NCBI RefSeq assembly: GCF_017348835.2
Contig: NZ_CP071375.1
Origin: Escherichia coli
GTDB taxonomy: Bacteria; Pseudomonadota; Gammaproteobacteria; Enterobacterales; Enterobacteriaceae
DNA length: 64,000 nucleotides
Reading direction: 5' to 3' (one strand)
This document shows positions 15,011 to 54,765 of this stretch, in pieces. The translations under genes and the position numbers were made by a program. Position 1 is the stretch's first letter. Each line of letters opens with the position of its first letter. The notes under the pieces were generated by a model. That model was not told the DNA's origin and ran no database searches. It was given only the letters and a program-made list of their open reading frames with translations.

Positions 15011-15087
15011 GCGCCCTTAGCTCAGTTGGATAGAGCAACGACCTTCTAAGTCGTGGGCCGCAGGTTCGAATCCTGCAGGGCGCGCCA
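15011..15087 (+). tRNA. argU: tRNA-Arg (anticodon UCU)
   Basis: 77-nt sequence gcgcccttagctcagttggatagagcaacgaccttctaagtcgtgggccgcaggttcgaatcctgcagggcgcgcca with TCT anticodon and GTTCGAATC T-loop. Confidence 0.95.
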
Positions 15088-15089
15088 TT
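15043..15089. repeat. attL core (3' part of argU)
   Basis: cttctaagtcgtgggccgcaggttcgaatcctgcagggcgcgcca(tt) is repeated exactly at 58302-58348. Confidence 0.8.
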
Positions 15090-15102
15090 ACAATTCAATC
15101 AG

Positions 15103-16265
15103 TTACGCCTTCTTTATATCCTCCATAATTCCACAGTGGGACATATTTGGGACATGATCACCAAAAATGTCGTCTATTTTCCTTGCATGCTCTGTCAAAT
15201 GATTAGGCGCAAGGTGAGCATACCTACGAACCATTTCTATGGACTCCCATCCGCCCATTTCCTGAAGCACAGATAATGGGACGCCTGACTGGATCAGCCA
15301 GCTTGCCCAGGTGTGTCTGAGGTCATGGAAACGGAAATCTTCAATTCCTGCACGACGACAAGCTGATAGCCATGATGTCTTGCTGTCGATGCGCATCTTC
15401 CTGACCGCAGGCGTTGATGTTCCATCTGCTCGCTTAGCCGCCTTGGTATGTACAAACACCCATTTGTGATGCTTGCCTATTTGATCACGCAACACTTTAC
15501 AGGCGGTATCGTTCAGCGCCACACCAATGGCGCGGTTTGATTTGCTCTCTTCTGGATTCACCCAGGCAACTCGTCGCTGCATGTCGATTTGTTGCCATTC
15601 CAGATTTATGATGTTCGACTTTCTCAGACCAGTTGCCAGCGCAAACTTGACGACAGATTTCAGTGGTTCGGGGCACTCATCAATAAGGCGTTTTGCTTCC
15701 TCCTTTTCCAGCCATCTGACTCGCTTGTTTCTGACCGCTGGTATCTTGATGACAGGCGCTTTTTCCAGCCACTTCCAGTCGCGTTCTGCAGCACGGAGAA
15801 TGGCCTTTATCATGGCAAGATGCTTTGCCTTTGTCTGAGTTGATACTGGCTTTGGTTCATAAACAGGCGGTTCTTTACCTTTCCTGATGGCGGCCTGAAC
15901 TTTCTGTTTCCATATTTCTTTCGTCTTTCTGTTATGCATTCTGCTTACAGCAGAGTAAATCTTTGCCTCCGAGATATCTTTAAGCCTTATACCCTCAAAA
16001 TGTTCAAGCCAGAACTCAATCCGGCTTTTATCTGAATCGAGAGATTTTTATCAGCTTTTTCCTCAAGCCATCTTAGGCAGGCCTCTTCAAAAGTGACATC
16101 AGGTAAATCCCCTAGCTTTTCTACTCGCCAGAGTTCTGCTTTTCGCTTGTCGTGCAACTCCTGAGCTTGCCGCTTGTCCTTTGTGCCAAGAGATTCCTTA
16201 ATTCGTTTCCCGCCCGGGAGCGAATACGAGGCATACCATATTTCATTTCTGCGGAAGAGTGACAT
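15103..16265 (-). pseudogene. int: tyrosine integrase disrupted by a 1-nt frameshift
   Basis: N-terminal ORF (16265 to 15987) and catalytic C-terminal ORF (15939 to 15103, with R..HxxR..Y motifs) are in different frames; C-terminal frame is open upstream to a TAA at 16048-16050; frames meet at T5 homopolymer 16045-16049. Confidence 0.8.
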
Positions 16266-16492
16266 TTTCTTTCCTCTGTTATGCCATCACCCGCGCTCAC
16301 CTGGACAGTATGCAGCGGAGACTGAAGCGCCGCAATGCAAGCTTGCCGTGTTGTGAGGTAAGGAGATTTTGGCTTGGTTGGATCTTTACGTGTTGCCTGT
16401 AGGCGGCCTGTTCGTATCCAGTTGGTGGCGGTTGGTCTGGATATCTTAAGAAACTGACAGGCCTCATCGAGTGTGAGGCTGTATGGCTCCAT
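16121..16492 (-). CDS. xis: excisionase-like HTH protein (AlpA/Xis family)
   Basis: Starts [31 protein letters not shown] (HTH); stop of upstream gene overlaps its ATG; 3' end overlaps the int start; true length uncertain. Confidence 0.5.
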
Positions 16493-16797
16493 TATTTCAC
16501 CTCTTGCTGTGTCATTGTTGAAAAATGGATACCAGCTCGTTGCTGCCAGACGATCCAACCGAGAGTCATATCCCATGCCATGTATTCGTTATCGCCGTTT
16601 TTTGCTCTCCGACGATCTACTAAGTCACCGAAACGCTTTTCCATGAATAATTCATAGGCTTCGCGTTCATCTGGCTCTACTTCCAGAGATACGAGTGCGA
16701 TTTCATAAGCACGGCGCTCAATATCGTCTCGAACCTCTAGGCTGCTGATTCGTTCTTTGATTTCTTTAATCAGTTCTTTATTGGTAAATGTGGTCAT
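16492..16797 (-). CDS. prophage protein, YfdT-like
   Basis: 101-aa ORF, translationally coupled in the leftward early operon; size and order match CPS-53 yfdT as recalled. Confidence 0.55.
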   Translation of the reverse strand: MTTFTNKELIKEIKERISSLEVRDDIERRAYEIALVSLEVEPDEREAYELFMEKRFGDLVDRRRAKNGDNEYMAWDMTLGWIVWQQRAGIHFSTMTQQEVK

Positions 16798-17159
16798 TAT
16801 GCTCCAGCCTCCGGTGCTTTTGGCATTACTGCCCAGTGAGTGATATTGACGTTTTCAAGGTCCCCGACCTGAAATGTCCACTGCCATTCTCCGGTTTCTT
16901 TTTGTCCCCAGTTGTACCAGAGAGAACGCCAGCCAATCAGCCAGCCTTCTCCATTAGCATCAAATAACAGAACACTTTCATTTGCTGGTGGCAGTTCAGC
17001 TGACACTGGTATTATTTTGTTTTCCAGTGCCGCACATTTAGCTTCAAGCGCGTCGAATTTACGTAACAGGTACTCAGCATTTGTTTCGTTCACTTTCAGA
17101 TCTCGCGGTACACATTTCCCGCGAAGAAACCCTTCCATTTCGAAAACATTCATGCGCAT
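16797..17159 (-). CDS. prophage protein, YfdS-like
   Basis: 120-aa ORF with Trp-rich C-terminus; ATGA overlap with neighbours. Confidence 0.55.
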   Translation of the reverse strand: MRMNVFEMEGFLRGKCVPRDLKVNETNAEYLLRKFDALEAKCAALENKIIPVSAELPPANESVLLFDANGEGWLIGWRSLWYNWGQKETGEWQWTFQVGDLENVNITHWAVMPKAPEAGA

Positions 17160-17686
17160 TTGCGTAACTCCGATAAATCGTTAAAACGTTCCATAAACAT
17201 CCCGTAGGCATGACCCGGTGCCAGTGGAATCACGTTGAACATCTCTGTTGCCGGGATGCCTTCCAGTACAGGCCAGAAAGAGCCATCATCAAGCCCGAGA
17301 TCGCGGCGTTCGGTTGCCAGCATGATGAGATCGGCATATTTCACGGGTGTACTCATAACTAGGGGTAACCCGTATTTCTCACGGATTACGGCGTCTATTT
17401 TTTCTTCCATTTGTTTATAGTCAGGAAGAAGGCGTTTCAGTGGTGCGGGAATGTCCTGGCAATACGCTTCTGTTGCATCATGCATTAACGCTTCAAAAGC
17501 AAATTCCTGCGGCACCAGCTGGCTGCAAAGAACCGCATGTTGGGCGACGCTGTAGAAGTGCGAAAGATGACCGGCAAAGCGACAGATATTTGAAAGGGAA
17601 ACCGCGATATCGTTAATATCGATGTCGTCTTTATTTATCTTGTCATAATAAAAATGCTTCCCGGAAAAAGTTTTAATAAATGACAT
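17150..17686 (-). CDS. HD-domain phosphohydrolase, YfdR-like 5'-deoxynucleotidase
   Basis: 178-aa product from ATG 17684-17686; HD-domain motifs (H..HD.E.Y..D). Confidence 0.7.
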   Translation of the reverse strand: MSFIKTFSGKHFYYDKINKDDIDINDIAVSLSNICRFAGHLSHFYSVAQHAVLCSQLVPQEFAFEALMHDATEAYCQDIPAPLKRLLPDYKQMEEKIDAVIREKYGLPLVMSTPVKYADLIMLATERRDLGLDDGSFWPVLEGIPATEMFNVIPLAPGHAYGMFMERFNDLSELRKCA

Positions 17687-17813
17687 TTTGTTCTCCACGT
17701 ATATGCACTGCACCGCGCTGAATTCTGGTAAAAGGAAGCCCTCACCATCCGGTGATTATTGAGTTAATTACGTTTCCATAAATGCCCCCGCAGGGGCATT
17801 TGCAGTAATGAAA

Positions 17814-18638
17814 TCAGGCGGTGAAAGTACCAATAAAGGTTTCTACTTTGCTGTCTTTGAATTTCTCAACAAGCAGATCACGAAATTCGTTAGCCATTTC
17901 TTCCTGCACCGCTTCCAGCTGAATAATGCGCAGAACCAGTACAGGACGATCGCCAGTGATAATGCTGAGGCGTAATTTAAACGGACGTTCTTTCAGGCCT
18001 TCAAACGGAACGCATTTAAATTCAAATGCCACTGGCATAATGTCTTTGGTCTTCGCTTCGACAGACTCCATCAGGGAGCGTTTGCCGCTGAAGTCATTAT
18101 CTTCAAAATCAGCGGTCTGGTTTGCTTCAATCGTGATTTTACGGACTGCCGCAGCCGCTTTTGTTGCCTGAATGGCGTCACCATTAGCATCAAAGCCCAC
18201 AAGGTAGTCGGCCCAGTCTTCGATCCATTCTGCCAGTGACTTCTGGGAGTTACGCTCGCCGTTAACAGACAACAGAGCAGAGAACGGTGCTGTCTTTTTC
18301 AGTTTGAGAGTGGCAGTGTTATCTGCGTGACCTGGCTCATCAATAGTACCCAGGTTAAGCACACTGACGGCACGCATATTATCGGCATCGATAAAGCAGC
18401 GGGTGCCTTCATCTGCAAGATCTTTAGAATAACGGGTAAAATCATCGATGCAGGCAGTGGAAAGTGCACCACGGAAACGGAAGCGATTTAAATTAAATTT
18501 TTCCAGATCATGAATGCGGAAATTCTCAGGCAATGCCACAGCATCGGCACCAATCTTACTGATAATTTCATTAACACCCTGAGCAGAAATAAGGGCATGG
18601 ATTTGATTAATTGCAGTTGCGTCTAAGTTCTGAGACAT
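17814..18638 (-). CDS. DUF2303-family prophage protein (YfdQ-like)
   Basis: 274-aa ORF; size and position match CPS-53 yfdQ as recalled. Confidence 0.6.
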
Positions 18639-18703
18639 AATAAGTCCTCACTATATAAAGATATTCAGTGATGAGATAAATAATCAGTTTATTACGAACG
18701 ATA

Positions 18704-19066
18704 TTAACGACCTGCTGCGCGGAGTTTTCCGTCAGGTTCACCGGCAAGAGTCAGTAATTGTCCCTGGTCTTCCTGCAGAATAGTCAGGCGACCACCGCGA
18801 TTGACATACATCGGCGTTTCGGTGGTGTCTTCTTCGGAAATTTTCCCGCGGTTAGTCGGGCGAATATATGAGAGTTTGTGTTTGATTTTCACACGGTTCT
18901 CATCAAATGGTTCGATTTCCAGGTTGAGTGAGACCTTACCTTTGGTTTTCGTGTTCATCACACCGGAAGCGACTTCACTGAGAACTGCGCCGATTTTGGT
19001 TTCAAATACGCCGCCGTCCAGCTCCCCGATAAATGCCTGCACATCAGTACTGCGTTCGCTAGCCAT
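18704..19066 (-). CDS. prophage protein, YfdP-like
   Basis: 120-aa product from ATG 19064-19066 (MASERSTDVQAFIGELDGG...); first gene of the leftward operon. Confidence 0.55.
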   Translation of the reverse strand: MASERSTDVQAFIGELDGGVFETKIGAVLSEVASGVMNTKTKGKVSLNLEIEPFDENRVKIKHKLSYIRPTNRGKISEEDTTETPMYVNRGGRLTILQEDQGQLLTLAGEPDGKLRAAGR

Positions 19067-19114
19067 TTTGCTGCTCCTCATCATATCGACCCTGCAAGGC
19101 CGATTAGTTTCTCC

Positions 19115-19247
19115 ACAAAACAGAGAAGAACACCTGTGGTGGCCGCCGCCCGGATGGATTGGGTTATGAGCCCGTCGTCCGGTGATGCTCTTCTCTGTTT
19201 TGTAAAAAGGACGGTACCAGCCGGAAGCAAGGGTACAAGCTGGTACC
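19115..19247. promoter_or_regulatory. structured leader: 15-bp perfect inverted repeat plus leftward hairpin/U-tract
   Basis: acaaaacagagaaga (19115-19129) and its exact reverse complement (19189-19203) with 59-nt spacer; stem ggtaccagc/gctggtacc (19213-19247) followed on the minus strand by TTTTT (19204-19208). Confidence 0.4.
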
Positions 19248-19468
19248 GCCAGGACTACACACAGCATAAAGTTGTGGTGCCGGGTGCCCTCCCGGTGCCT
19301 GGCGAAGGTTGCACACCAGGCGGGTGGGTATCCACAGAAGGTCGACTGTCAGCCTCAACCTTAACCCGCGTGCGCTGAGCCGCATTCACCACAACGCTAA
19401 GGATTCTCTCTGGTTGAAAATACTTAGCTGTTATGTGCCTGCTTTTAGCCACATCAGGCGAGGTGGAC

Positions 19469-19522
19469 CTGGTTATTCCCCAACAACAAGGATTCGGTTA
19501 ATCTGGATATCCCCAACAACAA
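19469..19522 (+). repeat. two tandem ~20-nt direct repeats just upstream of the 19537 ORF
   Basis: ctggttattccccaacaacaa (19469-19489) and ctggatatccccaacaacaa (19503-19522), period about 33 nt. Confidence 0.6.
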
Positions 19523-19536
19523 TAAGAGTATTCAAT

Positions 19537-20052
19537 GTGATCGCTGAATTAACGGCAGCAATGACGGCTATTCGTGAAACAGCCCAGATTGCAAAACTAA
19601 TGAACGAGGCAAAAACTCAAGCTGAAGTAAATGCGGCTATTGGTGAGCTGAACTCAAAGCTTGCGTCTATTCAGCGCGAATGCGTGTCTCTCGTTGAACT
19701 GGTGGGCTCTTATCAAGAAATAAATGCTTCTCTCAAAGCTAAAATTGCAGAATTCGAAAACTTTGAGGCTCAGACGGAAGGCTATATCCTTAACCAACTT
19801 GAGTCGGGTACTTTTGTATACTCGAAGGAGGTAATCGTGAACGGTGGCAGCATAACCATGCATCTTTGCCCAAAATGTTTTGGACAAAAGATAGTATCGA
19901 TACTTCAACCATTCCCGGTTAGCGAAGATGAGCTTTTTCATAAAAGCAGGTGCCTCCACTGTGAAAATAAGTTTCTGATGAATAAAAATCCGGATTACGT
20001 ATCGCCTCCATCCATTGAGGAGTTGTCCAGAAAACTTAACGGCAATCTGTAG
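19537..20052 (+). CDS. hypothetical protein: N-terminal coiled-coil, C-terminal CxxC...CxxC zinc ribbon
   Basis: ORF frame open from 19309; plausible starts GTG 19537 or ATG 19561; heptad-like N-terminus (IAKLMNEAKTQAEVNAAIGELNSKLASIQREC), C-terminal HLCPKCFGQK...SRCLHCENKF; own hairpin terminator downstream. Confidence 0.6.
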   Translation: MIAELTAAMTAIRETAQIAKLMNEAKTQAEVNAAIGELNSKLASIQRECVSLVELVGSYQEINASLKAKIAEFENFEAQTEGYILNQLESGTFVYSKEVIVNGGSITMHLCPKCFGQKIVSILQPFPVSEDELFHKSRCLHCENKFLMNKNPDYVSPPSIEELSRKLNGNL

Positions 20053-20090
20053 ATTACTACTGTTGTGGATATCCAGATTGTTAAAGAGCT

Positions 20091-20114
20091 AAGCGTCCTG
20101 TAGGGCGCTTTTTT
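20091..20114 (+). terminator. rho-independent terminator of the 19537-20052 gene
   Basis: Stem aagcgtcc/gggcgctt with tgta loop, then T6. Confidence 0.6.
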
Positions 20115-20280
20115 GTTGCTAACGAATCATCCTGGACTTCATATGCCCCAGGCGGCTACTTCGTGGGCGTCCTGCCTGTTCGTTTTTGACATTTACTGAC
20201 TGCTTACGACACATGCACCGTGTTGCAACCAGATTTTGTTGTAATCCTGTAGTTGGTCTGGAACAAAAGATAAAATTAAA

Positions 20281-20317
20281 TTGCGAGATATGCAAGCGAT
20301 ATTTGCGAGGTATGCAA
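20281..20317. promoter_or_regulatory. OL-like operator pair with candidate leftward promoter
   Basis: 15-mers TTGCGAGATATGCAA (20281-20295) and TTGCGAGGTATGCAA (20303-20317) share TTGC-N7-GCAA with sites in the cI-cro intergenic region; minus strand carries TTGCAT / 17 nt / TATCTT. Confidence 0.5.
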
Positions 20318-20330
20318 ATTTATAGGTAGT

Positions 20331-20351
20331 AAAAAGCCACCTTTCGGTGGC
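20331..20351 (-). terminator. rho-independent terminator after the cI-like gene
   Basis: Hairpin gccacc-tttc-ggtggc (20336-20351) followed on the minus strand by TTTTT (20331-20335). Confidence 0.6.
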
Positions 20352-20371
20352 CGATGGATGGGATATTGAGG

Positions 20372-21064
20372 TTAATTATGTCTCTTAAGGGTTTGCGACT
20401 GACTGATTAAGACCTTTCCAAAGACCATGAATCGGTGTTCGTTTTCGCTAGTAATTCCCCATTCACGGTAAATCTGGTTATCAGAAATCACCAGCAGTTT
20501 GTCAGGAATCATTTGAAGTCTTTTAACGTATATTTTGTCATCAAAACCAAAGACATATATACCATCACCATCAAACTGATTGATGCTGACATCAACGAAG
20601 ATGAGATCTCCTGGCTCAATGGTTGGACACATACTGTCCCCACGAACGTTGATAACTTTGATGTGATTGGCTGGTCGTCCGCCGAACATTGATACAGCAT
20701 TATCAGTTCTGTATTCGATGGCATGAATCACATCAATGACATCACCGCCCTGGATAAGGCCATTTCCCGCACTGGCACTGATATCCAGCATTTCAATACG
20801 GAACACATCCTTCACCTGCGCAACATCCTCATTATTACTGTTTTTATATACAGTATTACTTTTGTGGGCAGAGGTAAAGAGATCAGCAATATCAACACCT
20901 AAGCTCTTGGCAATATTACTCAGTGTTTGTTCGGTAAATTGTTTTTGCTTACCCGTTTCTAAGCGCGAGATGTTCGCCGCATCTACTCCTATTGCTTCAG
21001 CGAGATCGGCGATTTTCATGTTCTTCGCTTGGCGAAGTTGTCTGACTCGGTTTCCTATGTTCAT
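20372..21064 (-). CDS. cI: CI-like phage repressor (HTH_XRE plus S24 LexA-like peptidase domain)
   Basis: 230-aa; N-terminal HTH (RVRQLRQAKNMKIADLAEAIGVDAANISRLETGK), C-terminal GDSM serine and VKR lysine; divergent from a cro-like gene. Confidence 0.85.
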   Translation of the reverse strand: MNIGNRVRQLRQAKNMKIADLAEAIGVDAANISRLETGKQKQFTEQTLSNIAKSLGVDIADLFTSAHKSNTVYKNSNNEDVAQVKDVFRIEMLDISASAGNGLIQGGDVIDVIHAIEYRTDNAVSMFGGRPANHIKVINVRGDSMCPTIEPGDLIFVDVSINQFDGDGIYVFGFDDKIYVKRLQMIPDKLLVISDNQIYREWGITSENEHRFMVFGKVLISQSQTLKRHN

Positions 21065-21161
21065 GCGTTTATTACATTTCTTTATTGCGTGATAAGCAAA
21101 TCAACTTGCGCAAAATAATTGCGTGAAATAACATGCATAACGCGCAATATTTGGAGGGCAT
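21065..21161. promoter_or_regulatory. OR-like operator/promoter region between cI and cro
   Basis: Repeated TTGCG/CGCAA half-sites; 15-mers TTGCGTGATAAGCAA (21085-21099) and ATGCATAACGCGCAA (21133-21147); RBS ggaggg before cro. Confidence 0.55.
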
Positions 21162-21422
21162 ATGCAATCACCATTACGAAATGTGCGTAAGGCGCATGGT
21201 TTCACTTTGCAGCATGTTGCTGCGGGTGTTCAAGTCAATCCAGCGACGTTGAGTCGTATTGAGAGGCTGGAGCAGATTCCATCTATCGAGCTTGCAGAAC
21301 GTTTAGCCAATTTTTTTAAGGGTGAAGTCAGCGAAATGCAGATTCTTTATCCGGCACGTTTTCAATCTAGCCAAAACCAGAATGGGTTTAAACCACAGGA
21401 ACAGGAGGTGAACCGTGGGTAA
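21162..21422 (+). CDS. cro: Cro-like HTH regulator
   Basis: 86-aa HTH_XRE protein (FTLQHVAAGVQVNPATLSRIER) divergent from cI. Confidence 0.75.
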   Translation: MQSPLRNVRKAHGFTLQHVAAGVQVNPATLSRIERLEQIPSIELAERLANFFKGEVSEMQILYPARFQSSQNQNGFKPQEQEVNRG

Positions 21423-21966
21423 GCATCACTGGAAAGTAGAAAAACAGCCTGAGTGTTACGTGAAAGCTGTCAGAAAAACTATCGCAGCGTTGCCGGGGGG
21501 GTACGCTGAAGCTGCTGACTGGCTGGATGTAACAGAGAACGCATTATTTAACCGCCTTCGTGCCGATGGCGATCAGATTTTCCCGCTGGGATGGGCAATG
21601 ATTTTGCAACGTGCTGGTGGAACTCACTTCATTGCTGACGCTGTGGCGCAGTCTGCAAATGGCGTCTTTGTGTCTCTTCCTGATGTCGAGGATGTGGACA
21701 ACGCCGATATCAACCAACGCCTGCTGGAAGTCATTGAACAGATCGGCAGTTATTCAAAACAGATTCGTTCAGCAATTGAAGACGGTGTAGTGGAACCGCA
21801 TGAGAAGACAGCAATTAACGATGAGCTGTACCTCTCAATTTCGAAGCTGCAGGAGCATGCAGCACTGGTCTACAAAATCTTTTGCGTTTCAGAAAGTAGT
21901 GACGCCCGCGAGTGTGCAGCTCCGGGCGCCGTGGCGTGTCGTGACTGTGGAGAAACTAACGCATGA
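21415..21966 (+). CDS. phage regulatory protein, possibly CII (CP76)-like
   Basis: 183-aa ORF directly after cro with overlapping start; family assignment from position and recalled similarity only. Confidence 0.4.
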
Positions 21967-22301
21967 ACAGTTTAACAACACACTACCGTCGCTCGCAACT
22001 GATTGCGCTTCCTGTACCGGGTGGAAAAGCGAAGGTGGAGTATTGCTATGCAGTAAATGTACCAGGTGACAGGGAAATTGTAACCCACAGCTTTGCAGAG
22101 TGGGCTGTGGGTGATTTCAACCGGCAGAAGGAGACAGTCCTTTGCGACAAGTTAACCGCTGGTTCAAAGATCACTACGGAGTGCCCGTCAGAGTCATTCG
22201 TTGGGAGCCGGAAACACAACGGGTTATCTACCTCCGTGAAGGCTATGAGCATGAGTGCTTCAGCCCGCTCGAACAGTTTCGTCGTAAATTCAGGGAAATA
22301 G
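21963..22301 (+). CDS. hypothetical ORF in a region with three overlapping protein-like frames
   Basis: ATGA coupling to upstream gene; C-terminal half looks non-coding while frame +2 carries protein-like sequence with no ATG; see findings. Confidence 0.3.
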
Positions 22302-22310
22302 AGGTCGGTC

Positions 22311-23252
22311 ATGAGCACTAAATTAACCGGCTATGTATGGGATGGTTGCGCTGCGTCAGGCATGAAATTATCCAGCGTGGCAATTATGGCCCGCCTGGCT
22401 GATTTCAGTAATGACGAAGGTGTGTGCTGGCCATCAATTGAAACCATTGCCCGTCAGATTGGCGCGGGGATGAGTACCGTCAGAACGGCTATCGCACGGC
22501 TGGAAGCAGAAGGCTGGTTAACGCGTAAGGCGCGTCGCCAGGGTAACCGCAATGCGTCGAATGTTTATCAGCTTAACGTTGCGAAGCTTCAGGCAGCGGC
22601 ATTTTCTCAACTGTCAGATTCTGACCCGTCAAAATCTGACGCATCAAAATCTGACCCGTCAAAATTTGATGCGTCGAAATCTGGCAAAAAAGCGGGTTTT
22701 CACCCGTCAGAATCTGGCGGGGATCCGTCAGTAAAATCAAAACATGATCCGTCAGATAAAAAAACTTCTCGTCCGGACGCTTCGCAACCGGACACGCAGA
22801 AGGCTGAACAGGAGTTTTTAACTCGCCATCCTGATGCGGTTGTATTCAGCCCTAAAAAGCGCCAGTGGGGAACGCAGGATGATTTGACCTGCGCACAGTG
22901 GCTCTGGAAAAAAATCATCGCCCTGTACGAGCAGGCCGCCGAATGTGACGGCGAGGTGGTTCGTCCCAAAGAACCGAACTGGACAGCCTGGGCAAACGAA
23001 ATTCGCCTGATGTGTGTGCAGGATGGTCGTACTCACAAACAAATCTGCGAGATGTACAGCCGCGTCAGCCGCGATCCGTTCTGGTGCCGTAACGTGCTCA
23101 GCCCGTCGAAGCTGCGGGAAAAATGGGATGAGCTTTCCCTGCGCTTATCGCCGTCCGTCAGCACGTACACCGAAAAACGCGAAGACCCGTACTTCAAAGC
23201 CAGTTACGACAACGTGGACTACAGCCAGATCCCGGCAGGATTCAGGGGGTGA
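22311..23252 (+). CDS. phage replication initiator (O-like, N-terminal HTH)
   Basis: 313-aa; N-terminal winged-helix/HTH_36-like region (MSTVRTAIARLEAEGWL), internal iteron-encoded linker; follows cro/cII. Confidence 0.7.
   Translation: MSTKLTGYVWDGCAASGMKLSSVAIMARLADFSNDEGVCWPSIETIARQIGAGMSTVRTAIARLEAEGWLTRKARRQGNRNASNVYQLNVAKLQAAAFSQLSDSDPSKSDASKSDPSKFDASKSGKKAGFHPSESGGDPSVKSKHDPSDKKTSRPDASQPDTQKAEQEFLTRHPDAVVFSPKKRQWGTQDDLTCAQWLWKKIIALYEQAAECDGEVVRPKEPNWTAWANEIRLMCVQDGRTHKQICEMYSRVSRDPFWCRNVLSPSKLREKWDELSLRLSPSVSTYTEKREDPYFKASYDNVDYSQIPAGFRG
22606..22760. repeat. iteron-like direct repeats inside the replication gene (candidate ori)
   Basis: Four tandem 15-nt units tgacccgtcaaaatc / tgacgcatcaaaatc / tgacccgtcaaaatt / tgatgcgtcgaaatc (22622-22681), then degenerate ccgtcag units and an A-rich tract. 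Confidence 0.5.
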
Positions 23253-23743
23253 TCATGAGTCTTTTGAATGACGTTCAGAAATTCATTGAAGCCCATCCGG
23301 GCTGTACTTCCGGAGACATTGCGGATGCTTTTGCAGGTTACTCACGGCAGCGCGTTCTGCAGTCAGCAAGCAAGTTACGTCAGAGTGGGCGTGTGGCTCA
23401 CCGTTGTGAAGGAGATACACACAGACATTTCCCGCGCCTGACTGAGAGAGCGCAGGATCCGGAACCACAACCAGTTCGTGAAACCAGACCTGTGCGCAAT
23501 TTCTATGTCGGCACTAACGACCCGCGGGTGATTTTGTGCCTGACCCGCCAGGCGGAAGAACTGGAGTCCAGGGGCTTATACCGTCGTGCTGCAACGGTGT
23601 GGATGGCGGCATTCCGTGAAAGCCACTCCCAGCAAGAGCGAAACAATTTTCTTGCGCGTCGTGAGCGGTGTTTACGGAAAAGCAGCAAGCGCGCTGTATC
23701 GGGTGAAGAGTGGTATCTGTCAGGGAATTACGTGGGGGCTTAA
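23249..23743 (+). CDS. hypothetical prophage protein with PerC-like motif
   Basis: 164-aa ORF, ATGA-coupled to the replication gene; segment EELESRGLYRRAATVWMAAF resembles PerC-family activators (recalled). Confidence 0.4.
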   Translation: MIMSLLNDVQKFIEAHPGCTSGDIADAFAGYSRQRVLQSASKLRQSGRVAHRCEGDTHRHFPRLTERAQDPEPQPVRETRPVRNFYVGTNDPRVILCLTRQAEELESRGLYRRAATVWMAAFRESHSQQERNNFLARRERCLRKSSKRAVSGEEWYLSGNYVGA

Positions 23744-24069
23744 TGACGACGTTAACTCAATGCCAGCAGCAGGTGCTGGATATGCTGATTTCTTACCAGA
23801 AAGAACGTGGCTTCCCGCCAACCAATCAGGAGGTGGCTACCATGCTGGGATACCGTTCAGTGAATGCAGCGGTGGAGCATCTTCGCGCACTGGAGAAAAA
23901 AGGCGTCATCACGATAAAGCGTGGCGTGGCCCGGGGCATCACGCTTCATACCGCGGTGAAGGACGACGACAGCGAGGTGGCCGGGATTATCCGCGCACTG
24001 CTTGCTGGTGAGGAAAACGCCAGGCTGCGTGCAACCCACTGGTTACATGAGAGGGGCCTGAAAGTATGA
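23743..24069 (+). CDS. LexA N-terminal DNA-binding-domain-like protein (no peptidase domain)
   Basis: 108-aa product from ATG 23743; winged-helix similarity to LexA DBD (LTQCQQQVLDMLISYQKERGFPPTNQEVATMLGYRSVNAAVEHLRALEKKGVI). Confidence 0.55.
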   Translation: MTTLTQCQQQVLDMLISYQKERGFPPTNQEVATMLGYRSVNAAVEHLRALEKKGVITIKRGVARGITLHTAVKDDDSEVAGIIRALLAGEENARLRATHWLHERGLKV

Positions 24070-24455
24070 AGCTGATCCTGCCTTTTCCGCCCAGCGTGAA
24101 CACGTACTGGCGACACCCCAACAAAGGGGCGTTTGCTGGTAAGAGCCTGATAAGCGCGGCGGGGCGAAAATTCCAGAGCGCGGCGTGCGCAGCAATAGTT
24201 GAGCAGTTACGTCGTCTGCCGAAACCAACGTCGGCACCTGCTTCAGTGGAGATCGTGTTGTTTCCTCCGGATAACAGGATCCGCGATCTGGACAACTATA
24301 ACAAGGCGCTGTTTGACGCCCTGACCCACGCGGGGGTGTGGGAAGACGACAGTCAGGTGAAAAGAATGCTGGTGGAGTGGGGACCGGTTATCCCGGAAGG
24401 GAAGGTCGAGATCACTATCAGTAAGTACGAGAAAACGGCGGGTGCAGCTGCCTGA
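24066..24455 (+). CDS. rusA: RusA-family Holliday junction resolvase
   Basis: 129-aa; RusA motifs including DLDN and acidic catalytic residues. Confidence 0.8.
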   Translation: MKLILPFPPSVNTYWRHPNKGAFAGKSLISAAGRKFQSAACAAIVEQLRRLPKPTSAPASVEIVLFPPDNRIRDLDNYNKALFDALTHAGVWEDDSQVKRMLVEWGPVIPEGKVEITISKYEKTAGAAA

Positions 24456-24474
24456 TCAAGAGGAGAAACGAAGT

Positions 24475-25284
24475 ATGAATAATCTGATGGTCATTGATGG
24501 TATTGAAGTTCGTCGTGATGCTTATGGGCGTTACAGCCTGAACGATCTGCATCGCGCAGCAGTAGCATCTGGTGCAAATGCCAGAACCAAGGAGCCAGGA
24601 AAGTTTCTTTCCAGCCAACAAACTGTTGAGCTTGTTCATGAATTAACCAACACCCAGAATTTGGGTGTTGACCCGGTGAGTGTGATTCATGGGGGAAATG
24701 AACGGGGAACGTATGTCTGTAAGGAACTGGTGTATGCCTATGCAATGTGGATCAGCCCGTCATTCCATCTGAAGGTGATCCGTACTTTCGATATGGTAAC
24801 CAGCGCGCCGGAAAAGTTATCCGGACAGGTTGCTGACAAGATGCAGGCTGGCGTGATTCTGCTGGACTTTATGCGCCGGGAGTTAAATCTGTCTAACTCA
24901 TCTGTGCTTGGGGCCTGTCAGAAACTCCAGGAGGCTGTTGGCTTACCGAATCTGGCACCGCGCTATGCCATTGATGCACCTGCTGACGCGCCTGATGGCT
25001 CAAGCCGCCCGACGCTGTCGCTGAGTGCACTGCTGAAGCAGTATGGTATCCGCCTGACGGCTAATCAGGCATATCACCAGATGGCGAAGCTGGGGATCGT
25101 TGAACAACGCGAACGATACAGCCGTACCGCGATTAACAACATCAAAAAATTCTGGTCGCTGACAGCGAAAGGTTGCATGTTCGGCAAGAACATCACCAGT
25201 CCCGCAAATCCGCGCGAGACGCAGCCGCATTTCTTCGAATCCCGATTCCCTGAGCTGTTAAAGCTGCTCGATACCGTTCATTGA
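24475..25284 (+). CDS. KilA-N domain protein (antirepressor-like)
   Basis: 269-aa from ATG 24475 with RBS aggag; N-terminal KilA-N/APSES-like domain. Confidence 0.65.
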   Translation: MNNLMVIDGIEVRRDAYGRYSLNDLHRAAVASGANARTKEPGKFLSSQQTVELVHELTNTQNLGVDPVSVIHGGNERGTYVCKELVYAYAMWISPSFHLKVIRTFDMVTSAPEKLSGQVADKMQAGVILLDFMRRELNLSNSSVLGACQKLQEAVGLPNLAPRYAIDAPADAPDGSSRPTLSLSALLKQYGIRLTANQAYHQMAKLGIVEQRERYSRTAINNIKKFWSLTAKGCMFGKNITSPANPRETQPHFFESRFPELLKLLDTVH

Positions 25285-25285
25285 G

Positions 25286-26281
25286 GTGAACGTGAGAGCG
25301 CTACTGACCCCCGAGATTGCCCCGCGTATGGGGATCGTATTGTTCAGACCCGGTTCAGAGCTGATGCCCCTGTTTATGCAGGGGCGTGTCCTGCTGGAGC
25401 CTGAGCCGGAACGTTATTCATCTTTTGCCAGTGGTGCCGTTCCGGCTGCATCACAACCGCTGGCGGATGATCCTGCCGTTCGGGCCGTGTTCCGCAATGA
25501 GGCAGTGATCCGTCGTGCTGGTGGCGTGGAATGTCTTGAAAGCTGGTTACTTCGTGAAAAAGGCTGCCAGTGGCCTCATTCCGACTGGCACAGCGAGAAC
25601 ATGACCACAATGCGACACGCGCCGGGCGCAATCCGTCTGTGCTGGCACTGCGATAACCAACTGCGCGATCAGTTCACGGAACGGCTGGAATCAATGGCAA
25701 CGGATAACTGTGCCCGCTGGGTGTTGTCTGTTGTGCGTCGGGATCTCGGTTTTGATGACAGTCACGTTGTGACAATGCCGGAACTGTGCTGGTGGCTGAT
25801 TCGTAATGATCTGGCGGATACCTTACCGGAAAGTGCAGCCCGTAAGGCACTGAGATTACCGAAGCCTTTTGTGCCGTCTGTCACCCGGGAAAGTGACCTG
25901 GTGCCTTCGGTTCCTGCCACCAGCATCATCCAGAATAAAGCGAAAAAGGTGCTGGCGCTGAAAGTGGATCCGGAGTCGCCGGACTCTTTTATGTTACGCC
26001 CAAAACGTCGCCGCTGGGTTAATGAAAAGTACACGCGATGGGTTAAGACGCAGCCGTGCGCATGTTGTGGAAAACCTGCTGATGATCCCCACCACCTGAT
26101 AGGCCACGGTCAGGGTGGAATGGGGACAAAAGCGCATGACCTCTTTGTGTTGCCTTTGTGCAGAAAGCATCACGACGAGCTGCATGCGGATACTGTGGCA
26201 TTCGAAGAGAAGTATGGCTCCCAGCTGGAGCTGATATTTCGTTTTATCGATCGTGCGCTGGCGATTGGTGTGCTGGCCTGA
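25286..26281 (+). CDS. DUF968-like prophage protein with C-terminal Cys/His (HNH-like) cluster
   Basis: 331-aa; C-terminus [18 protein letters not shown]...CRKHHDELH. Confidence 0.55.
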
Positions 26282-26298
26282 TTTTGTGGAGAAAGTTG

Positions 26299-26682
26299 AT
26301 GCGTGATATTCAGATGGTTCTTGAGCGTTGGGGAGCGTGGGCGGCTAATAATCATGAAGATGTGACTTGGTCGTCCATTGCCGCCGGTTTTAAGGGATTA
26401 ATTCCTTCAAAAGTAAAATCTCGCCCACAATGTTGTGACGATGACGCGATGATCATTTGCGGGTGCATGGCCCGTCTGAAAAAGAACAACAGCGACTTGC
26501 ACGATTTATTAGTAGATTATTATGTAGTCGGTATGACATTCATGTCACTGGCAGGTAAGCATTGCTGCTCTGATGGTTATATCGGGAAAAGGTTACAGAA
26601 GGCTGAGGGCATAATTGAAGGGATGTTAATGGCATTAGATATCCGGTTAGAGATGGATATCGTTGTTAATAACTCTAATTAA
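26299..26682 (+). CDS. quuD: late-gene antiterminator Q (DLP12 quuD-like)
   Basis: 127-aa product from ATG 26299 ([22 protein letters not shown]...); position before the lysis cassette. Confidence 0.75.
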
Positions 26683-26715
26683 TATGCCAATTGTTTACTA
26701 AAAATTATTAAAAAT

Positions 26716-26733
26716 GGGGCGTTGCAACGCCCC
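26716..26733. terminator. 18-bp perfect palindrome hairpin between Q and nmpC
   Basis: ggggcgttg/caacgcccc; T-rich tract on the minus-strand side. Confidence 0.4.
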
Positions 26734-26829
26734 CAAAAATAAAGGGTAATATATAACAGAAGGTTTATATAGTTAGAAGCAAGGTTGTGCTCCTAAAGGA
26801 AGTGGCTTGAGGGAGCCACTTATATGTTG

Positions 26830-26860
26830 GGGAGGCAAAGCCTCCCGCAACATATCTTTT
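26830..26860 (+). terminator. candidate tR'-like terminator downstream of Q
   Basis: Stem ggaggc/gcctcc (26830-26846) followed by TTTT at 26857-26860. Confidence 0.35.
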
Positions 26861-26870
26861 AGTAATCAAA

Positions 26871-27953
26871 TTAGAACTGGTAAACCATACCTACAGCAAC
26901 GATATCATCGGTAGCAACGCCAGATGCTTTCGTGAAATCGCTCTTATCAATCAGGTTGATTTTGTAATCAACAAAAGTGGACATATTTTTGTTGAAGTAA
27001 TAGGTTGCACCTACATCAATATATTCAACCAGGTCCTGATCACCCCACGCACCCAAGTCTTTTCCTTTAGATTGCAGGTAAGCAACGGACGGACGCAGAC
27101 CGAAGTCGAACTGATATTGTGCAACTACTTCGAAGTTTTGTGCTTTGTTGGCAATATGGTTATTACCAAAAACAGTCATGTTCTGGGTTTCAGAATAGGT
27201 GGTAGCCAGATAGATGTTGTTCGCATCATATTTCAGACCAGCTGCCCATACTTCAGCATTTTGACCAGATGCATTCAGGCTGTTGTTACCGTAGATAACC
27301 TGATTATTAGTGCGGTCAGATTTAGCATAGGTTGCACCTACACCGAATCCTTCATACTCATACGTAGTGGAGAAACCGAAACCATCACCATTAGCTTCAG
27401 TTACGTCAGTGCGGTCATTTTTACCCTGATACTGAGCAGCAAAGTTCAGACCATCAACCAGACCAAAGAAGTCGTTGTTACGATAAGTTGCAACACCAGT
27501 GGTGCGACCAGTCATGAACACATCTGTTTGGGTCCAGGTATCGCCACCGAATTCTGGCAGAACGTCAGTCCACGCACCGATGTCATATGCTACACCGTAG
27601 TTACGGCCGTAATCGATTGAGCCGTAGTCCCCGAATTTCAGGCCTGCAAATGCAAGACGGGTTTTGTCTTTGGAGGAGCCTTGAGATTCAGCGCGGTTGC
27701 CTTTGAATTCATATTCCCACTGACCGAAACCAGTCAGTTGATCGTTGATTTGGGTTTCACCTTTGAAGCCAAGACGGGCATAAGTAGTATCACCATCATC
27801 TGCATCATTAGAGGAGAAGTAGTGCTTGGCATTAACTTTCCCATATAGATCCAGCTTGTTACTGTCTTTATTATAAATTTCAGCTGCCTGAGCAGACATC
27901 GCCATCAGTACTGATGCGGCTACAGCAGAAATTGCCACTGTTAATTTTTTCAT
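26871..27953 (-). CDS. nmpC: outer membrane general porin (NmpC/OmpD-like), intact
   Basis: 360-aa 16-strand porin with signal peptide and C-terminal ...VGMVYQF. Confidence 0.9.
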
Positions 27954-28541
27954 CGTGAGCCCTTTTTTTTGAACTATTATTAAAAAATGATGTCACTGCG
28001 CGATAAATATTCATCTAATCAATGTGATTATTTCAAGATGTAAGTTTTAGTTTCTCATTTAATTTGTGAGGTAGATCTCTATTTTTATCTGAACTTTTTC
28101 TATCGAAACCTATTTATGGCTCTTATTTGAACAAAAATAAACCTATTAGCTAATTTATATTAATGGCTGTTATTTATGGAGGTTCTATAATTCGGCGGTT
28201 TAATTTAAATCAACTAAAAATAACGGCGGAAATTATTTGTAGGATATTTGTTGAGGTTTTCTTATGTATTTGTGGTGGTGTTTTGAACACTCGGTAGCAT
28301 TCTCATAAATATCATTCAGTGGTTTACGTACGTAAAAAATTGGTTATGCTGTTAAGAGTGGTTACTTCGTCACACAGCTTAAACCCGCCGTCGAGCTGGT
28401 TTTTCCATTTTTTGAGTCTCGATATTAGCTGATAACTCAATACCTGAGTTATTCACTGACTCCGAGTCTGTTACGTTTCTGCTTTTTTGCGATACGTTGT
28501 ATTCCCTCAATTTACACCCGCTTTGTCTGCGAGGTGGGGTT

Positions 28542-28757
28542 ATGAAATCCATGGATAAGTTAACAACGGGTGTCGCCTATGGCACCTCAGCAGGTAGTGC
28601 CGGTTACTGGTTTTTACAGCTGCTCGATAAAGTTACGCCCTCACAGTGGGCAGCAATAGGTGTGCTGGGTAGCCTGGTATTTGGCCTGCTGACGTACCTG
28701 ACAAACCTTTATTTCAAGATTAAAGAAGATAAGCGCAAGGCTGCGAGAGGTGAATAA
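28542..28757 (+). CDS. essD: pinholin (phage 21 S-like) with dual start
   Basis: 71-aa with MKSMDK dual-start motif (ATG 28542 and 28551), RBS gaggtgggg, two TM segments. Confidence 0.85.
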
Positions 28758-29254
28758 TGCCTCCATCATTACGAAAAGCCGTTGCTGCTGCTATTGGTGG
28801 CGGAGCAATTGCTATAGCATCAGTGTTAATCACTGGCCCAAGTGGTAACGATGGTCTGGAAGGTGTCAGCTACATACCATACAAAGATATTGTTGGTGTA
28901 TGGACTGTATGTCACGGGCATACAGGAAAAGACATCATGCTCGGTAAAACGTATACCAAAGCAGAATGCAAAGCACTCTTGAATAAAGACCTTGCCACTG
29001 TCGCCAGACAAATTAACCCGTACATCGAAGTCGATATACCGGAAACAACGCGCGGCGCTCTTTACTCATTCGTTTACAACGTGGGTGCTGGCAATTTCAG
29101 AACATCGACGCTTCTTCGCAAAATAAACCAGGGCGATATCAAAGGCGCATGTGATCAGCTACGTCGCTGGACATACGCTGGCGGTAAGCAATGGAAAGGC
29201 CTGATGACTCGCCGTGAGATTGAGCGTGAAATCTGTTTGTGGGGTCAGCAATGA
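28757..29254 (+). CDS. rrrD: SAR endolysin (lysozyme)
   Basis: 165-aa; N-terminal signal-anchor-release segment, T4-lysozyme-like catalytic region. Confidence 0.85.
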
Positions 29255-29712
29255 ACAGAGTAACCGCGATTATCTCCGCTCTGGTTATCTGCATCATCGT
29301 CTGCCTGTCATGGGCTGTTAATCATTACCGTGATAACGCCATTACCTACAAAGCCCAGCGCGACAAAAATGCCAGAGAACTGAAGCTGGCGAACGCCACC
29401 ATTACTGACATGCAGCAGCGCCAGCGTGATGTTGCTGCACTGGATGAAAAATACACGAAGGAGTTAGCTAATGCGAAAGCTGAAAATGATGCTCTGCGTG
29501 ATGATGTTGCCGCTGGTCGTCGTCGGTTGCACATCAAAGCAGTCTGTCAGTCAGTGCGTGAAGCCACCACCGCCTCCGGCGTGGATAATGCAGCCTCCCC
29601 CCGACTGGCAGACACCGCTGAACGGGATTATTTCACCCTCAGAGAGAGGCTGATCACTATGCAAAAACAACTGGAAGGAACCCAGAAGTATATTAATGAG
29701 CAGTGCAGATAG
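29251..29712 (+). CDS. rzpD: spanin inner-membrane subunit (Rz)
   Basis: 153-aa from ATG 29251 overlapping the endolysin stop; N-terminal TM plus coiled-coil. Confidence 0.8.
29471..29653 (+). CDS. rzoD: spanin outer-membrane lipoprotein (Rz1) embedded in Rz in +1 frame
   Basis: 60-aa with lipobox (LVVVGC) and Pro-rich segment, wholly inside Rz. Confidence 0.75.
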
Positions 29713-29743
29713 AGCTGCCCATATCGATGGGCAACTCATGCAA

Positions 29744-30037
29744 TTATTGTGAGCAATACACACGCGCTTCCAGCGGAGTATAAATGCCTAAAGTAATAAA
29801 ACCGAGCAATCCATTTACGAATGTTTGCTGGGTTTCTGTTTTAACAACATTTTCTGCGCCGCCACAAATTTTGGCTGCATCAACAGTTTTCTCCTGTCCA
29901 ATTCCCGAAACGAAGAAGTGATGGGTGATGGTTTCCTTTGGTGTTACTGCTGTCGGTTTGTTTCCAACAGTAAACGTCTGTTGAGCACATCCTGTAATAA
30001 GCATTGCCAGAGCGGCAGAAAACAACATTTTTTTCAT
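29744..30037 (-). CDS. bor: Bor lipoprotein
   Basis: 97-aa from ATG 30035-30037 (MKKMLFSAALAMLITGC lipobox). Confidence 0.85.
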   Translation of the reverse strand: MKKMLFSAALAMLITGCAQQTFTVGNKPTAVTPKETITHHFFVSGIGQEKTVDAAKICGGAENVVKTETQQTFVNGLLGFITLGIYTPLEARVYCSQ

Positions 30038-30399
30038 CTTATTATCCTGCATTGTTAAAAACGGCAGAATCCTATGTGACAACAATTAAACGATAATTAA
30101 ATGGATTGATGAAAATTAAAACTATATAGGTGTACGCTCAGACTATTGGAGGAAGTTGGGGACACTCAGAATCCTGTGGAATGAAATAAACCGGTCTATC
30201 CGTCTATTACCCTTTTAGCTGCGCTGTATCGTCGCCGTATTCCCGCATTAACCATGACCGTAGCCCGACGGGGAATTCCTTCTGCGTGAGTGTGCGGGAA
30301 TAATCAAAAACGATGCACACCGGGTTTTACTGTGCTGACAGACGCAGGGTTACCCTCATAGTCGCTTTTCCGGTGCGATGGTGGAAGAAACCGGGATGT

Positions 30400-30594
30400 T
30401 TATTCATCATCACTTTGGATTGATGTATATGCTCTCTTTTCTGACGTTAGTCTCCGACGGCAGGCTTCAATGACCCAGGCTGAGAAATTCCCGGACCCTT
30501 TTTGCTCAAGAGCGATGTTAATTTGTTCAATCATTTGGTTAGGAAAGCGGATGTTGCGGGTTGTTGTTCTGCGGGTTCTGTTCTTAGTTGACAT
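30400..30594 (-). CDS. DUF3950-family small protein (YlcI-like)
   Basis: 64-aa basic N-terminus; between bor and cos. Confidence 0.55.
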   Translation of the reverse strand: MSTKNRTRRTTTRNIRFPNQMIEQINIALEQKGSGNFSAWVIEACRRRLTSEKRAYTSIQSDDE

Positions 30595-30793
30595 GAGGTT
30601 GCCCCGTATTCAGTGTCGCTGATTTGTATTGTCTGAAGTTGTTTTTACGTTAAGTTGATGCAGATCAATTAATACGATACCTGCGTCATAATTGATTATT
30701 TGACGTGGTTTGATGGCGTAGATGCACGTTGTGACATGTAGATGATAATTATTATCATTTTGCGGGTCCTTTCCGGCGATCCGACAGGTTACG

Positions 30794-30805
30794 GGGCGGC
30801 GACCT
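30794..30805. other. cosN cohesive-end site
   Basis: ...ccgacaggttacg | GGGCGGCGACCT cgcgggttttcgctatttatgaaaattttccgg matches the lambda genome ends as recalled; terminase genes follow. Confidence 0.85.
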
Positions 30806-30982
30806 CGCGGGTTTTCGCTATTTATGAAAATTTTCCGGTTTAAGGCGTTTCCGTTCTTCTTCGTCGTAACTTAATGTTTTTATTTAAAACACCCTCTGAA
30901 AAGAAAGGAAACGACAGGTGCTGAAAACGAGCTTTTTGGCCTCTGTCGTTTCCTTTCTCTGTTTTTGTCCGTGGAATGAACA

Positions 30983-31502
30983 ATGGAAGTCAACAAAAAG
31001 CAGCTGGCTGACATTTTCGGCGCGAGTATCCGTACCATTCAGAACTGGCAGGAGCAGGGAATGCCCGTTCTGCGGGGTGGTGGCAAGGGTAATGAAGTGC
31101 TTTATGACTCTGCCGCCGCCATAAAATGGTATGCCGAAAGGGATGCTGAAATTGAGAACGAAAAGCTGCGCCGGGAAGTTGAAGAACTGCGGCAGGCCAG
31201 CGAGACAGATCTCCAGCCAGGGACTATTGAGTACGAACGCCATCGACTTACGCGTGCGCAGGCCGACGCACAGGAGCTGAAAAATGCCAGAGACTCCGCT
31301 GAAGTGGTGGAAACCGCATTCTGTACTTTCGTGCTGTCGCGGATCGCAGGTGAAATTGCCAGTATTCTCGACGGGATCCCCCTGTCGGTGCAGCGGCGTT
31401 TTCCGGAACTGGAAAACCGACATGTTGATTTCCTGAAACGGGATATCATCAAAGCCATGAACAAAGCAGCCGCGCTGGATGAACTGATACCGGGGTTGCT
31501 GA

Positions 31503-31528
<26 letters not shown>
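30983..31528 (+). CDS. nu1: terminase small subunit (Nu1)
   Basis: 181-aa, near-identical to lambda Nu1 as recalled. Confidence 0.9.
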
Positions 31529-35209
<3,681 letters not shown>

Positions 35210-35229
<20 letters not shown>

Positions 35230-36529
35230 TCTCCCGCATATTGCCAGCATGGCTTTTAATGAGCCGCTGATGCTTGAACCCGCCTATGCGCGGGTTTTCT
35301 TTTGTGCGCTTGCAGGCCAGCTTGGGATCAGCCGCCTGACGGATGCAGTATCCGGCGACAGCCTGACTGCCGGAGAGGCACCCGCGGCGCTGGCGTTATC
35401 CGGTGATGATGACGGACCACGACAGGCCCGGAGTTATCAGGTCATGAACGGCATCGCCGTGCTGCCGGTGTCCGGTACGCTGGTCAGCCGGACGCGGGCG
35501 CTGCAGCCGTATTCGGGGATGACCGGTTACAACGGCATTATCGCCCGTCTGCAACAGGCTGCCAGCGACCCGATGGTGGACGGCATTCTGCTCGATATGG
35601 ACACACCGGGCGGAATGGTGGCGGGAGCATTTGACTGTGCTGACATCATCGCCCGTGTGCGTGACATAAAACCGGTATGGGCGCTGGCCAACGACATGAA
35701 CTGCAGTGCAGGTCAGCTGCTTGCCAGCGCCGCCTCCCGGCGTCTGGTCACGCAGACCGCCCGGACAGGCTCCATCGGCGTCATGATGGCTCACAGTAAT
35801 TACGGTGCTGCCCTGGAGAAACAGGGCGTGGAAATCACGCTGATTTACAGCGGCAGCCATAAGGTGGATGGCAACCCCTACAGCCATCTACCGGGTGATG
35901 TCCGGGAAACACTGCAGTCCCGGATGGATGCAACCCGCCGGATGTTTGCGCAGAAGGTGTCGGCATATACCGGCCTGTCCGTGCAGGCTGTGCTGGATAC
36001 CGAGGCTGCAGTGTACAGCGGTCAGGAGGCCATTGATGCCGGACTGGCTGATGAACTTGTCAACAGCACCGATGCGATCACCGTTATGCGTGATGCACTG
36101 GATGCACGTAAATCCCGTCTCTCAGGAGGGCGAATGACCAAAGAGACTCAATCAACAACTGTTTCAGCCACTGCTTCGCAGGCTGACGTTACTGGCGTGG
36201 TGCCAGCGATGGAGGGCGAAAACGCCAGCGCGGCGCAGCCGGACGTGAACGCGCAGATCACCGCTGCGGTTGCGGCAGAAAACAGCCGCATTATGGGGAT
36301 CCTCAACTGTGAGGAGGCTCACGGACGCGAAGAACAGGCCCGCGTGCTGGCAGAAACCCCCGGTATGACCGTGGAAACGGCCCGCCGCATTCTGGCCGCA
36401 GCACCACAGAGTGCACAGGCGCGCAGTGATACTGCGCTGGATCGTCTGATGCAGGGGGCACCGGCACCGCTGGCTGCAGGTAACCCGGCATCTGATGCCG
36501 TTAACGATTTGCTGAACACACCAGTGTAA
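35210..36529 (+). CDS. C: head protease/scaffold (gpC, Nu3 in-frame C-terminal part)
   Basis: 439-aa from GTG 35210 (VTAELRNLPHIASMAFNEP...); S49 peptidase-like. Confidence 0.85.
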
Positions 36530-36538
36530 GGGATGTTT

Positions 36539-36871
36539 ATGACGAGCAAAGAAACCTTTACCCATTACCAGCCGCTGGGCAACAGTGACCCGGCTCATAC
36601 CGCAACCGCGCCCGGCGGATTGAGTGCGAAAGCGCCTGCAATGACCCCGCTGATGCTGGACACCGCCACCCGTAAGCTGGTTGCGTGGGATGGCACCACC
36701 GACGGTGCTGCCGTTGGCATTCTGGCGGTTGCTGCTGACCAGACCAGCACCACGCTGACGTTCTACAAGTCCGGCACGTTCCGTTATGAGGATGTGCTCT
36801 GGCCGGAGGCTGCCAGCGATGAGACGAAAAAACGGACCGCGTTTGCCGGAACGGCAATCAGCATCGTTTAA
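36539..36871 (+). CDS. D: head decoration protein D
   Basis: 110-aa [27 protein letters not shown]... Confidence 0.9.
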
Positions 36872-36926
36872 CCTTACCCTTCATCACTAAAGGCCGCCTG
36901 TGCGGCTTTTTTTACGGGATTTTTTT

Positions 36927-37952: not shown

Positions 37953-37993
37953 TCATGGCCCTTCGGGGCCATTTTCTCTCTGTGGAGGAGTCC

Positions 37994-38389
37994 ATGACGA
38001 AAGATGAACTGATTGCCCGTCTTCAGGTGCTGGGTGAGCAACTGAACCGTGATGTCAGCCTGACGGGGACGAAAGAAGAACTGGCACTCCGTGTGGCAGA
38101 GCTGGAAGAGGAGCTTGATGACACGGATGACGCTGCCGGTCAGGACACATCTGTCAGCCCGGAAAATGCGCTGACCGGACATGAAAATGAGGTTGTATCA
38201 GCGCAGCCGGATACCGTGACTGATACGGCTGATCTGGTCACGGTTGTGGCACTGGTGACGCTGCATACTGATGCACTTCACGCCACGCGGGATGAGGCTG
38301 TGGCATTTGTGCTGCCGGGAACGGCGTTCCGTGTCTCTGCCGGTGTGGCAGCTGAAATGACAGAGCGCGGCCTGGCCAGAATGCAATAA
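37994..38389 (+). CDS. FI: DNA packaging protein FI
   Basis: 131-aa from ATG 37994 with RBS ggaggag. Confidence 0.8.
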   Translation: MTKDELIARLQVLGEQLNRDVSLTGTKEELALRVAELEEELDDTDDAAGQDTSVSPENALTGHENEVVSAQPDTVTDTADLVTVVALVTLHTDALHATRDEAVAFVLPGTAFRVSAGVAAEMTERGLARMQ

Positions 38390-38400
38390 CGGGAGGCGCT

Positions 38401-39736: not shown

Positions 39737-39743
39737 GGACGCT

Positions 39744-40484: not shown

Positions 40485-40499
40485 TCCGGAGAGTCAGCG

Positions 40500-44916: not shown

Positions 44917-44921
44917 ATCCC

Positions 44922-46234: not shown

Positions 46235-46294
46235 TGAAAAACGTTTTATGTGAAACCGCCTCCGGGCGGTTTTGTCGTTTATGGAGCGTGAGGA

Positions 46295-54709: not shown

Positions 54710-54765
54710 GTTATAGTTTTATTTGTGAATTAAATCAATTATGGCGATGAATTACAAGGGGTTAA

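Follow-up and report, generated by a model that had tools for sequence, protein, structure and literature searches.

A probable single-base deletion divides the intD integrase gene of a full-length argU prophage of Escherichia coli

Described relatives of the prophage

In Escherichia coli K-12, the prophage DLP12 has an intact IntD and excises at low frequency, while the prophage Qin, whose integrase is inactive, does not (PMC3105296). Excision of DLP12 is promoted by over-expressed IntD (bioRxiv 10.1101/2024.12.20.629666). Both are remnants: the intact intD of DLP12, with a run of six A residues (A6), sits in a decayed 21-kb element (PMC3105296), and Qin, which carries the intQ pseudogene, is heavily decayed. 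Relatives are also recorded as temperate, plaque-forming phages. The int-xis regions of Kati (PP925833.1) and PhiR49_1 (PV340568.1) match that of the prophage described here at 99.9% nucleotide identity, with one extra base that gives an in-frame A6 integrase. They cover 86% of the prophage collinearly at 90 to 99% identity; the immunity region, some accessory genes, and the tail-fibre genes are not alike. The viability of the PhiR phages is taken solely from GenBank host fields, and a literature search on them found nothing relevant.

The window, which is the whole 64,000-nucleotide stretch of E. coli DNA analyzed here, contains a prophage at the same fimZ-argU-intD locus as K-12 DLP12. The two have the tRNA-Arg(UCU) att site in common, and the window integrase would have the 387 aa of K-12 IntD (WP_001350488.1) if one base were added. 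In contrast to the DLP12 remnant, the window prophage is full length (43.3 kb) and its integrase gene is broken. It resembles Qin in having an inactive integrase and in its predicted failure to excise, and differs from it in that a single missing base is the lesion and the phage genome is complete apart from this.

A near-identical locus is present in E. coli PE164 (NZ_CP114128.1), a pig isolate from Nanjing (PMC12233904). Only 6 substitutions (at window positions 72, 15192, 16490, 24035, 26496, and 59738) and 0 indels separate PE164 from the window over 64 kb (99.97% identity), so the NCBI annotation of PE164 is transferable. Its intD is recorded as a pseudogene (LZG51_RS17820), which PGAP labels "frameshifted; internal stop." The PE164 gene has the same lesion, a run of five A residues (A5), in the same prophage with the same flanks. 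It differs from the window by two further changes in the PE164 record: a GAG to TAG substitution in the C-terminal frame of int (window 15192), which explains the words "internal stop," and an ATG to ATA substitution (window 16490) that removes the start codon of xis.

The intD pseudogene and its prophage

An earlier note, made from the sequence alone, described the integrase of this prophage as divided into an N-terminal and a catalytic C-terminal frame by a one-base shift in a homopolymer. The list of open reading frames and their translations confirmed every coordinate that it gave for the two frames. The parts of the gene are as follows.

15987..16265, minus strand: N-terminal reading frame of intD, from the ORF list; 92 aa, of which 73 are native and 19 are out of frame, followed by TAA
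15103..16047, minus strand: C-terminal reading frame of intD, containing the remainder of the stretch that joins the N-terminal part to the catalytic domain, and the catalytic domain itself; its first start codon is the ATG at 15939
16045..16049, minus strand: A5 run on the coding strand (T5 on the plus strand), A6 in homologues; site of the probable 1-nt deletion, at codons Lys73-Lys74

The junction on the coding strand reads GCT GAT AAA AAT CTC, with the A5 run at 16049 to 16045. The catalytic region of the integrase is held by a 278-aa ORF (15103 to 15939, minus strand), and is encoded downstream in the -1 frame relative to the native start. Upstream of the ATG at 15939, 36 residues are read in the C-terminal frame, and translation of the frame bore out the claim that it reaches back to the TAA at 16048 to 16050. 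No Shine-Dalgarno-like sequence was found upstream of this ATG. In wild-type intD, A6 is the longest homopolymer, and the remaining runs measure 5 nt or less.

When one A is inserted at the A5 run, a single 387-codon ORF results, as had been proposed (about 387 aa). The exact sequence of the restored protein is already known from 138 contigs in a public protein collection, and 383 of its 387 residues are identical to those of K-12 IntD (8 nucleotide differences after the A is added); the split gene is therefore no chance resemblance. The Pfam domain Phage_integrase (PF00589) matches residues 184 to 355 of the restored protein (E = 2.6e-46, profile positions 1 to 171 of 172), and the integrase families phrog_10426 and phrog_1 match as well. 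Alignment to the solved HP1 integrase identified the catalytic motifs, namely, the Arg in ATGLR, H-x-x-R, and the Tyr in RYAH: ATGLR is paired in the alignment, HVLRHTFAS falls in the H-x-x-R region, and RYAHLAP is paired with RYAHFAP. A functional tyrosine recombinase gene has one uninterrupted frame, and this one is split at the A5 run (16045 to 16049). Since the N-terminal and catalytic frames are separated there, the gene is a pseudogene of the tyrosine integrase family. Near-identity to K-12 IntD, a position beside argU, and an att core repeated at the far end of the element make it a pseudogene of the DLP12-type (argU-specific) intD. For annotation, the two ORFs are halves of one pseudogene and not separate genes.

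The element around the gene is delimited by the following features.

15011..15087, plus strand: argU, tRNA-Arg (anticodon UCU), the integration target, found by ARAGORN and annotated as tRNA-Arg in PE164 and K-12
15043..15089, no strand: attL core, a 47-nt exact direct repeat over the 3' part of argU, found by exact repeat search
58302..58348, no strand: attR core, the second 47-nt copy, found by repeat search; the PhiR49_1 record begins and ends at the att sites
15043..58348, no strand: DLP12-family lambdoid prophage, 43.3 kb from att to att, ompT cargo included, delimited from the att repeats, annotation, and phage alignment
16121..16492, minus strand: intact xis (excisionase) ORF of 123 aa, which overlaps the int start by 145 nt and has a full-length match to phrog_2907 (E = 1.1e-45)

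The intD pseudogene lies 16 nt from argU, and the flank is fimZ-sfm, as in K-12. A near-consensus sigma-70 promoter is found just upstream of argU (14952 to 14979, plus strand; TTGACT, a 16-nt spacer, and TATAAT; 11 of 12 matches) and is presumably the promoter of this tRNA gene.

The rest of the prophage had been described as intact in appearance, and this held on every count: the 47-nt att core is present at both ends, xis is full length, no core gene is flagged, and the 86% collinearity is with phages taken as viable. According to the PE164 annotation, the regulation and replication genes encode a repressor, Cro-like regulators, an O-like replication protein, RusA, and Q, and the lysis genes encode holin, lysozyme, and Rz. 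Head functions are represented by Nu1/A terminase, portal, protease, decoration, and capsid genes, and the tail genes form a full series through J, with Lom and tail fibres in addition. An OmpC-like porin, iss, a methyltransferase, an alpha/beta hydrolase, and ompT make up the cargo. The NCBI annotation of PE164 flags no broken structural, lysis, or regulatory gene in the prophage. The only flags besides intD are on a tail-fibre-assembly remnant and on a short hypothetical gene (19081 to 19392), which PGAP calls frameshifted both in PE164 and in the unrelated strain 05-3629 and which reflects either an older common lesion or an annotation artefact.

The xis ORF is equally present in other clean loci. 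It is unannotated or called partial by PGAP in several genomes, despite its match to the whole PHROG. The possibility that xis is broken too, suggested by a 64-aa call in one A5-carrying locus (L008) and by a "partial" HTH protein called by PGAP in 05-3629, was ruled out: the short call in L008 reflects a private 1-nt deletion, and the 123-aa ORF spans the whole excisionase PHROG.

Several accessory genes are distributed along the element. The OmpC/NmpC-like porin gene (26871 to 27953) lies between Q and the lysis genes, iss (29744 to 30037), which encodes a bor-like serum-survival lipoprotein, follows the lysis genes, and a lom homologue is found in the tail region. The genes for the SAM methyltransferase (54041 to 54709), the alpha/beta hydrolase (55255 to 56739), and ompT (56926 to 57879) are all inside the att repeats. 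PhiR49_1 likewise carries ompT with the same methyltransferase and hydrolase cargo, and ompT is therefore phage-borne here. Just beyond attR, envY is split by an IS3-family element in the PE164 annotation (pieces at 58392 to 58673 and 59981 to 60466, transposase at 58726 to 59939). The contig of the draft assembly GCA_032490275.1 appears to stop near window position 58745, at this IS3 element.

Occurrence of the A5 run and alternative explanations

A census was made of 5426 complete RefSeq E. coli genomes, and the 81-nt segment that spans the run was found in 1635 of them. Of these, 1586 contain an exact match to its 82-nt A6 form, and PE164 alone matches the A5 form exactly (1 of 1635). Complete RefSeq genomes normally have A6, with A5 restricted to a single lineage. 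The earlier note had proposed that homopolymer length be compared with that of intD in other E. coli genomes, and the outcome agrees with its suggestion that one A is missing. The 92-aa product, which can be encoded only by the A5 allele, occurs on 53 contigs of a far larger protein collection.

The A5 run was also found outside complete genomes. It is carried by two draft assemblies (GCA_032490275.1 and GCA_019365205.1) and by Logan read-derived contigs from SRR14865169 and SRR27418558, all of them gap-free and 100% identical to the window over the 1.2 to 6.8 kb compared. At both sites of substitution within this region, the two drafts and two Logan contigs side with the window and not with PE164. 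At least two of these observations are independent (PE164 versus the drafts), and the drafts may have been assembled from the reads of some of the Logan runs. At least two separately sequenced isolates thus have the lesion in common.

The foremost alternative is an artefact: base calling in the homopolymer would have missed one A, and the genome itself would have A6 and a whole integrase. The rarity of A5 among complete genomes is in its favor, as is the noise in some other assemblies that carry A5: two of these (L006 and L008) have private indels in xis, and in two more (L012 and L013) a second A5 run, at gene position 502, is one A short, perhaps through noise in homopolymer sequencing. These four carriers show that A6 can be miscalled as A5 in error-prone assemblies. 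However, sequencing error is unlikely for the window, since the same A5 recurs in several separate assemblies and read-derived contigs (PE164, the two drafts, and the two Logan contigs) that are gap-free and identical to it over kilobases, at 99.97% for PE164 and 100% for the others. The window assembly is also not generally indel-prone: PGAP flags only one other frameshifted gene within 64 kb, and that flag recurs in the unrelated strain 05-3629. The nonsense codon in int and the lost xis start codon in the PE164 record argue against an artefact as well. Judged from assemblies and contigs, the A5 deletion is probably real and clonally inherited, and the artefact retains only a small residual chance.

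A5 is not confined to the window type of intD. Counting that type, gap-free contigs show it on three or more haplotypes, the others being those of the Logan contigs from SRR7223132 (L010, 3001 to 4163) and SRR30896577 (L011), which align to the window without gaps and with several differences. In L010, the NLEWQQ motif of intD is in addition interrupted by a stop codon. The recurrence of A5 is a mixture of true independent slippage events and homopolymer miscalls. Under neutrality, slippage would be expected first at the longest homopolymer, which is A6, and the presence of A5 on at least three haplotypes could come from selection, neutral slippage, or sequencing noise alike. There is a slim chance, no greater than that of the artefact, that A6 at Lys73-Lys74 is a recurrent "grounding" site, at which independent E. 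coli lineages would repeatedly lose one A, reversibly, and so fix an otherwise complete prophage with its ompT, iss, and porin genes; the free N-terminal fragment might persist.

Slightly less probable still is a phase-variable tract or selected hot spot, where an A6/A5 switch toggles the mobility of the prophage or the loss of an A is repeatedly selected and so keeps the ompT, iss, and porin cargo in place. The three or more haplotypes and the 53 contigs encoding the 92-aa product count in its favor. Against it, A5 is found in about 1 in 1600 complete genomes, so that polymorphism of tract length is not common, and 6 nt is far below the length of known contingency tracts. A5 and A6 were the only tract lengths found. 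That A5 recurs at the longest homopolymer matches what neutral slippage predicts, and sequencing noise accounts for some of the repeated cases.

Least probable of all, and in our judgment very hard to sustain, is that the A5 gene still gives full-length Int through recoding, whether the ribosome undergoes a programmed -1 frameshift at GAU AAA AAU or the A run is transcribed with slippage. Moving back one base at AAA would yield exactly the wild-type ...ADKKSLD..., and there is a GAGG motif some 11 nt before the run, but this candidate was rejected for want of a canonical heptamer (the zero-frame U AAA AAU is not of the form X XXY YYZ), of a downstream structure (a 126-nt stretch that takes in the site and the sequence downstream is predicted to be no more stably folded than shuffled sequence, with an MFE of -28.3 kcal/mol where shuffles average -25.3, z = -0.88), and of a conserved two-frame layout, the in-frame A6 version being exact in 1586 of 1635 genomes and present in the phages as well. 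In E. coli, transcription slips efficiently only on A/T runs of about 9 or longer, and the A5 run falls short of this. Later disruptive mutations in A5 lineages (the TAG in PE164 and the NLEWQQ stop in L010) further argue that the gene is dead. The earlier note had itself allowed for a sequencing error or a slippage-prone site; the first of these caveats proved unlikely, and no sign was found that the run is a site of recoding or of phase variation.

Predicted loss of excision and its meaning

The reading that we strongly favor is that of a genuine A6 to A5 deletion in the longest homopolymer of intD, in a full-length argU prophage, which arose by slippage, is clonal, and leaves the prophage with no full-length Int and grounded in the chromosome. 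Replication slippage would have removed one A from A6, and the A5 allele would since have passed down by clonal descent within a small E. coli lineage, PE164 among its members. A ribosome that begins at the native start is predicted to stop after 92 aa, and the catalytic domain would be left in the other frame, behind an ATG that has no ribosome-binding site; because of this early stop and the displaced catalytic domain, no full-length integrase would be made. As attL, attR, and xis are all intact in the window, the defect would be confined to the trans-acting recombinase. The prophage would thereby be deprived of site-specific excision, except where the run on rare occasions reverts or slips, or where another prophage provides Int. 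Judged from the sequence, the lesion probably leaves the prophage unable to excise, and such a loss fits the data on DLP12 and Qin in K-12.

The two further changes in PE164 may reflect continued decay. The chance that at least 2 of 6 substitutions fall in the 1.39-kb int-xis module of a 64-kb stretch is 0.0067, which fits a module already free of selection, although errors in the PE164 record may contribute.

The observation of a frameshifted intD is correct, and the event is an ordinary one that is already known, being annotated as frameshifted in the near-identical PE164 record; its relevance beyond the window strain is little. In the PE164 lineage, the argU prophage and its ompT, iss, and porin cargo are predicted to be transmitted vertically and not released as excised phage. 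The locus shows clearly how the domestication of a prophage begins, with the recombinase lost through a single base while the att sites, xis, and all virion genes are still intact.
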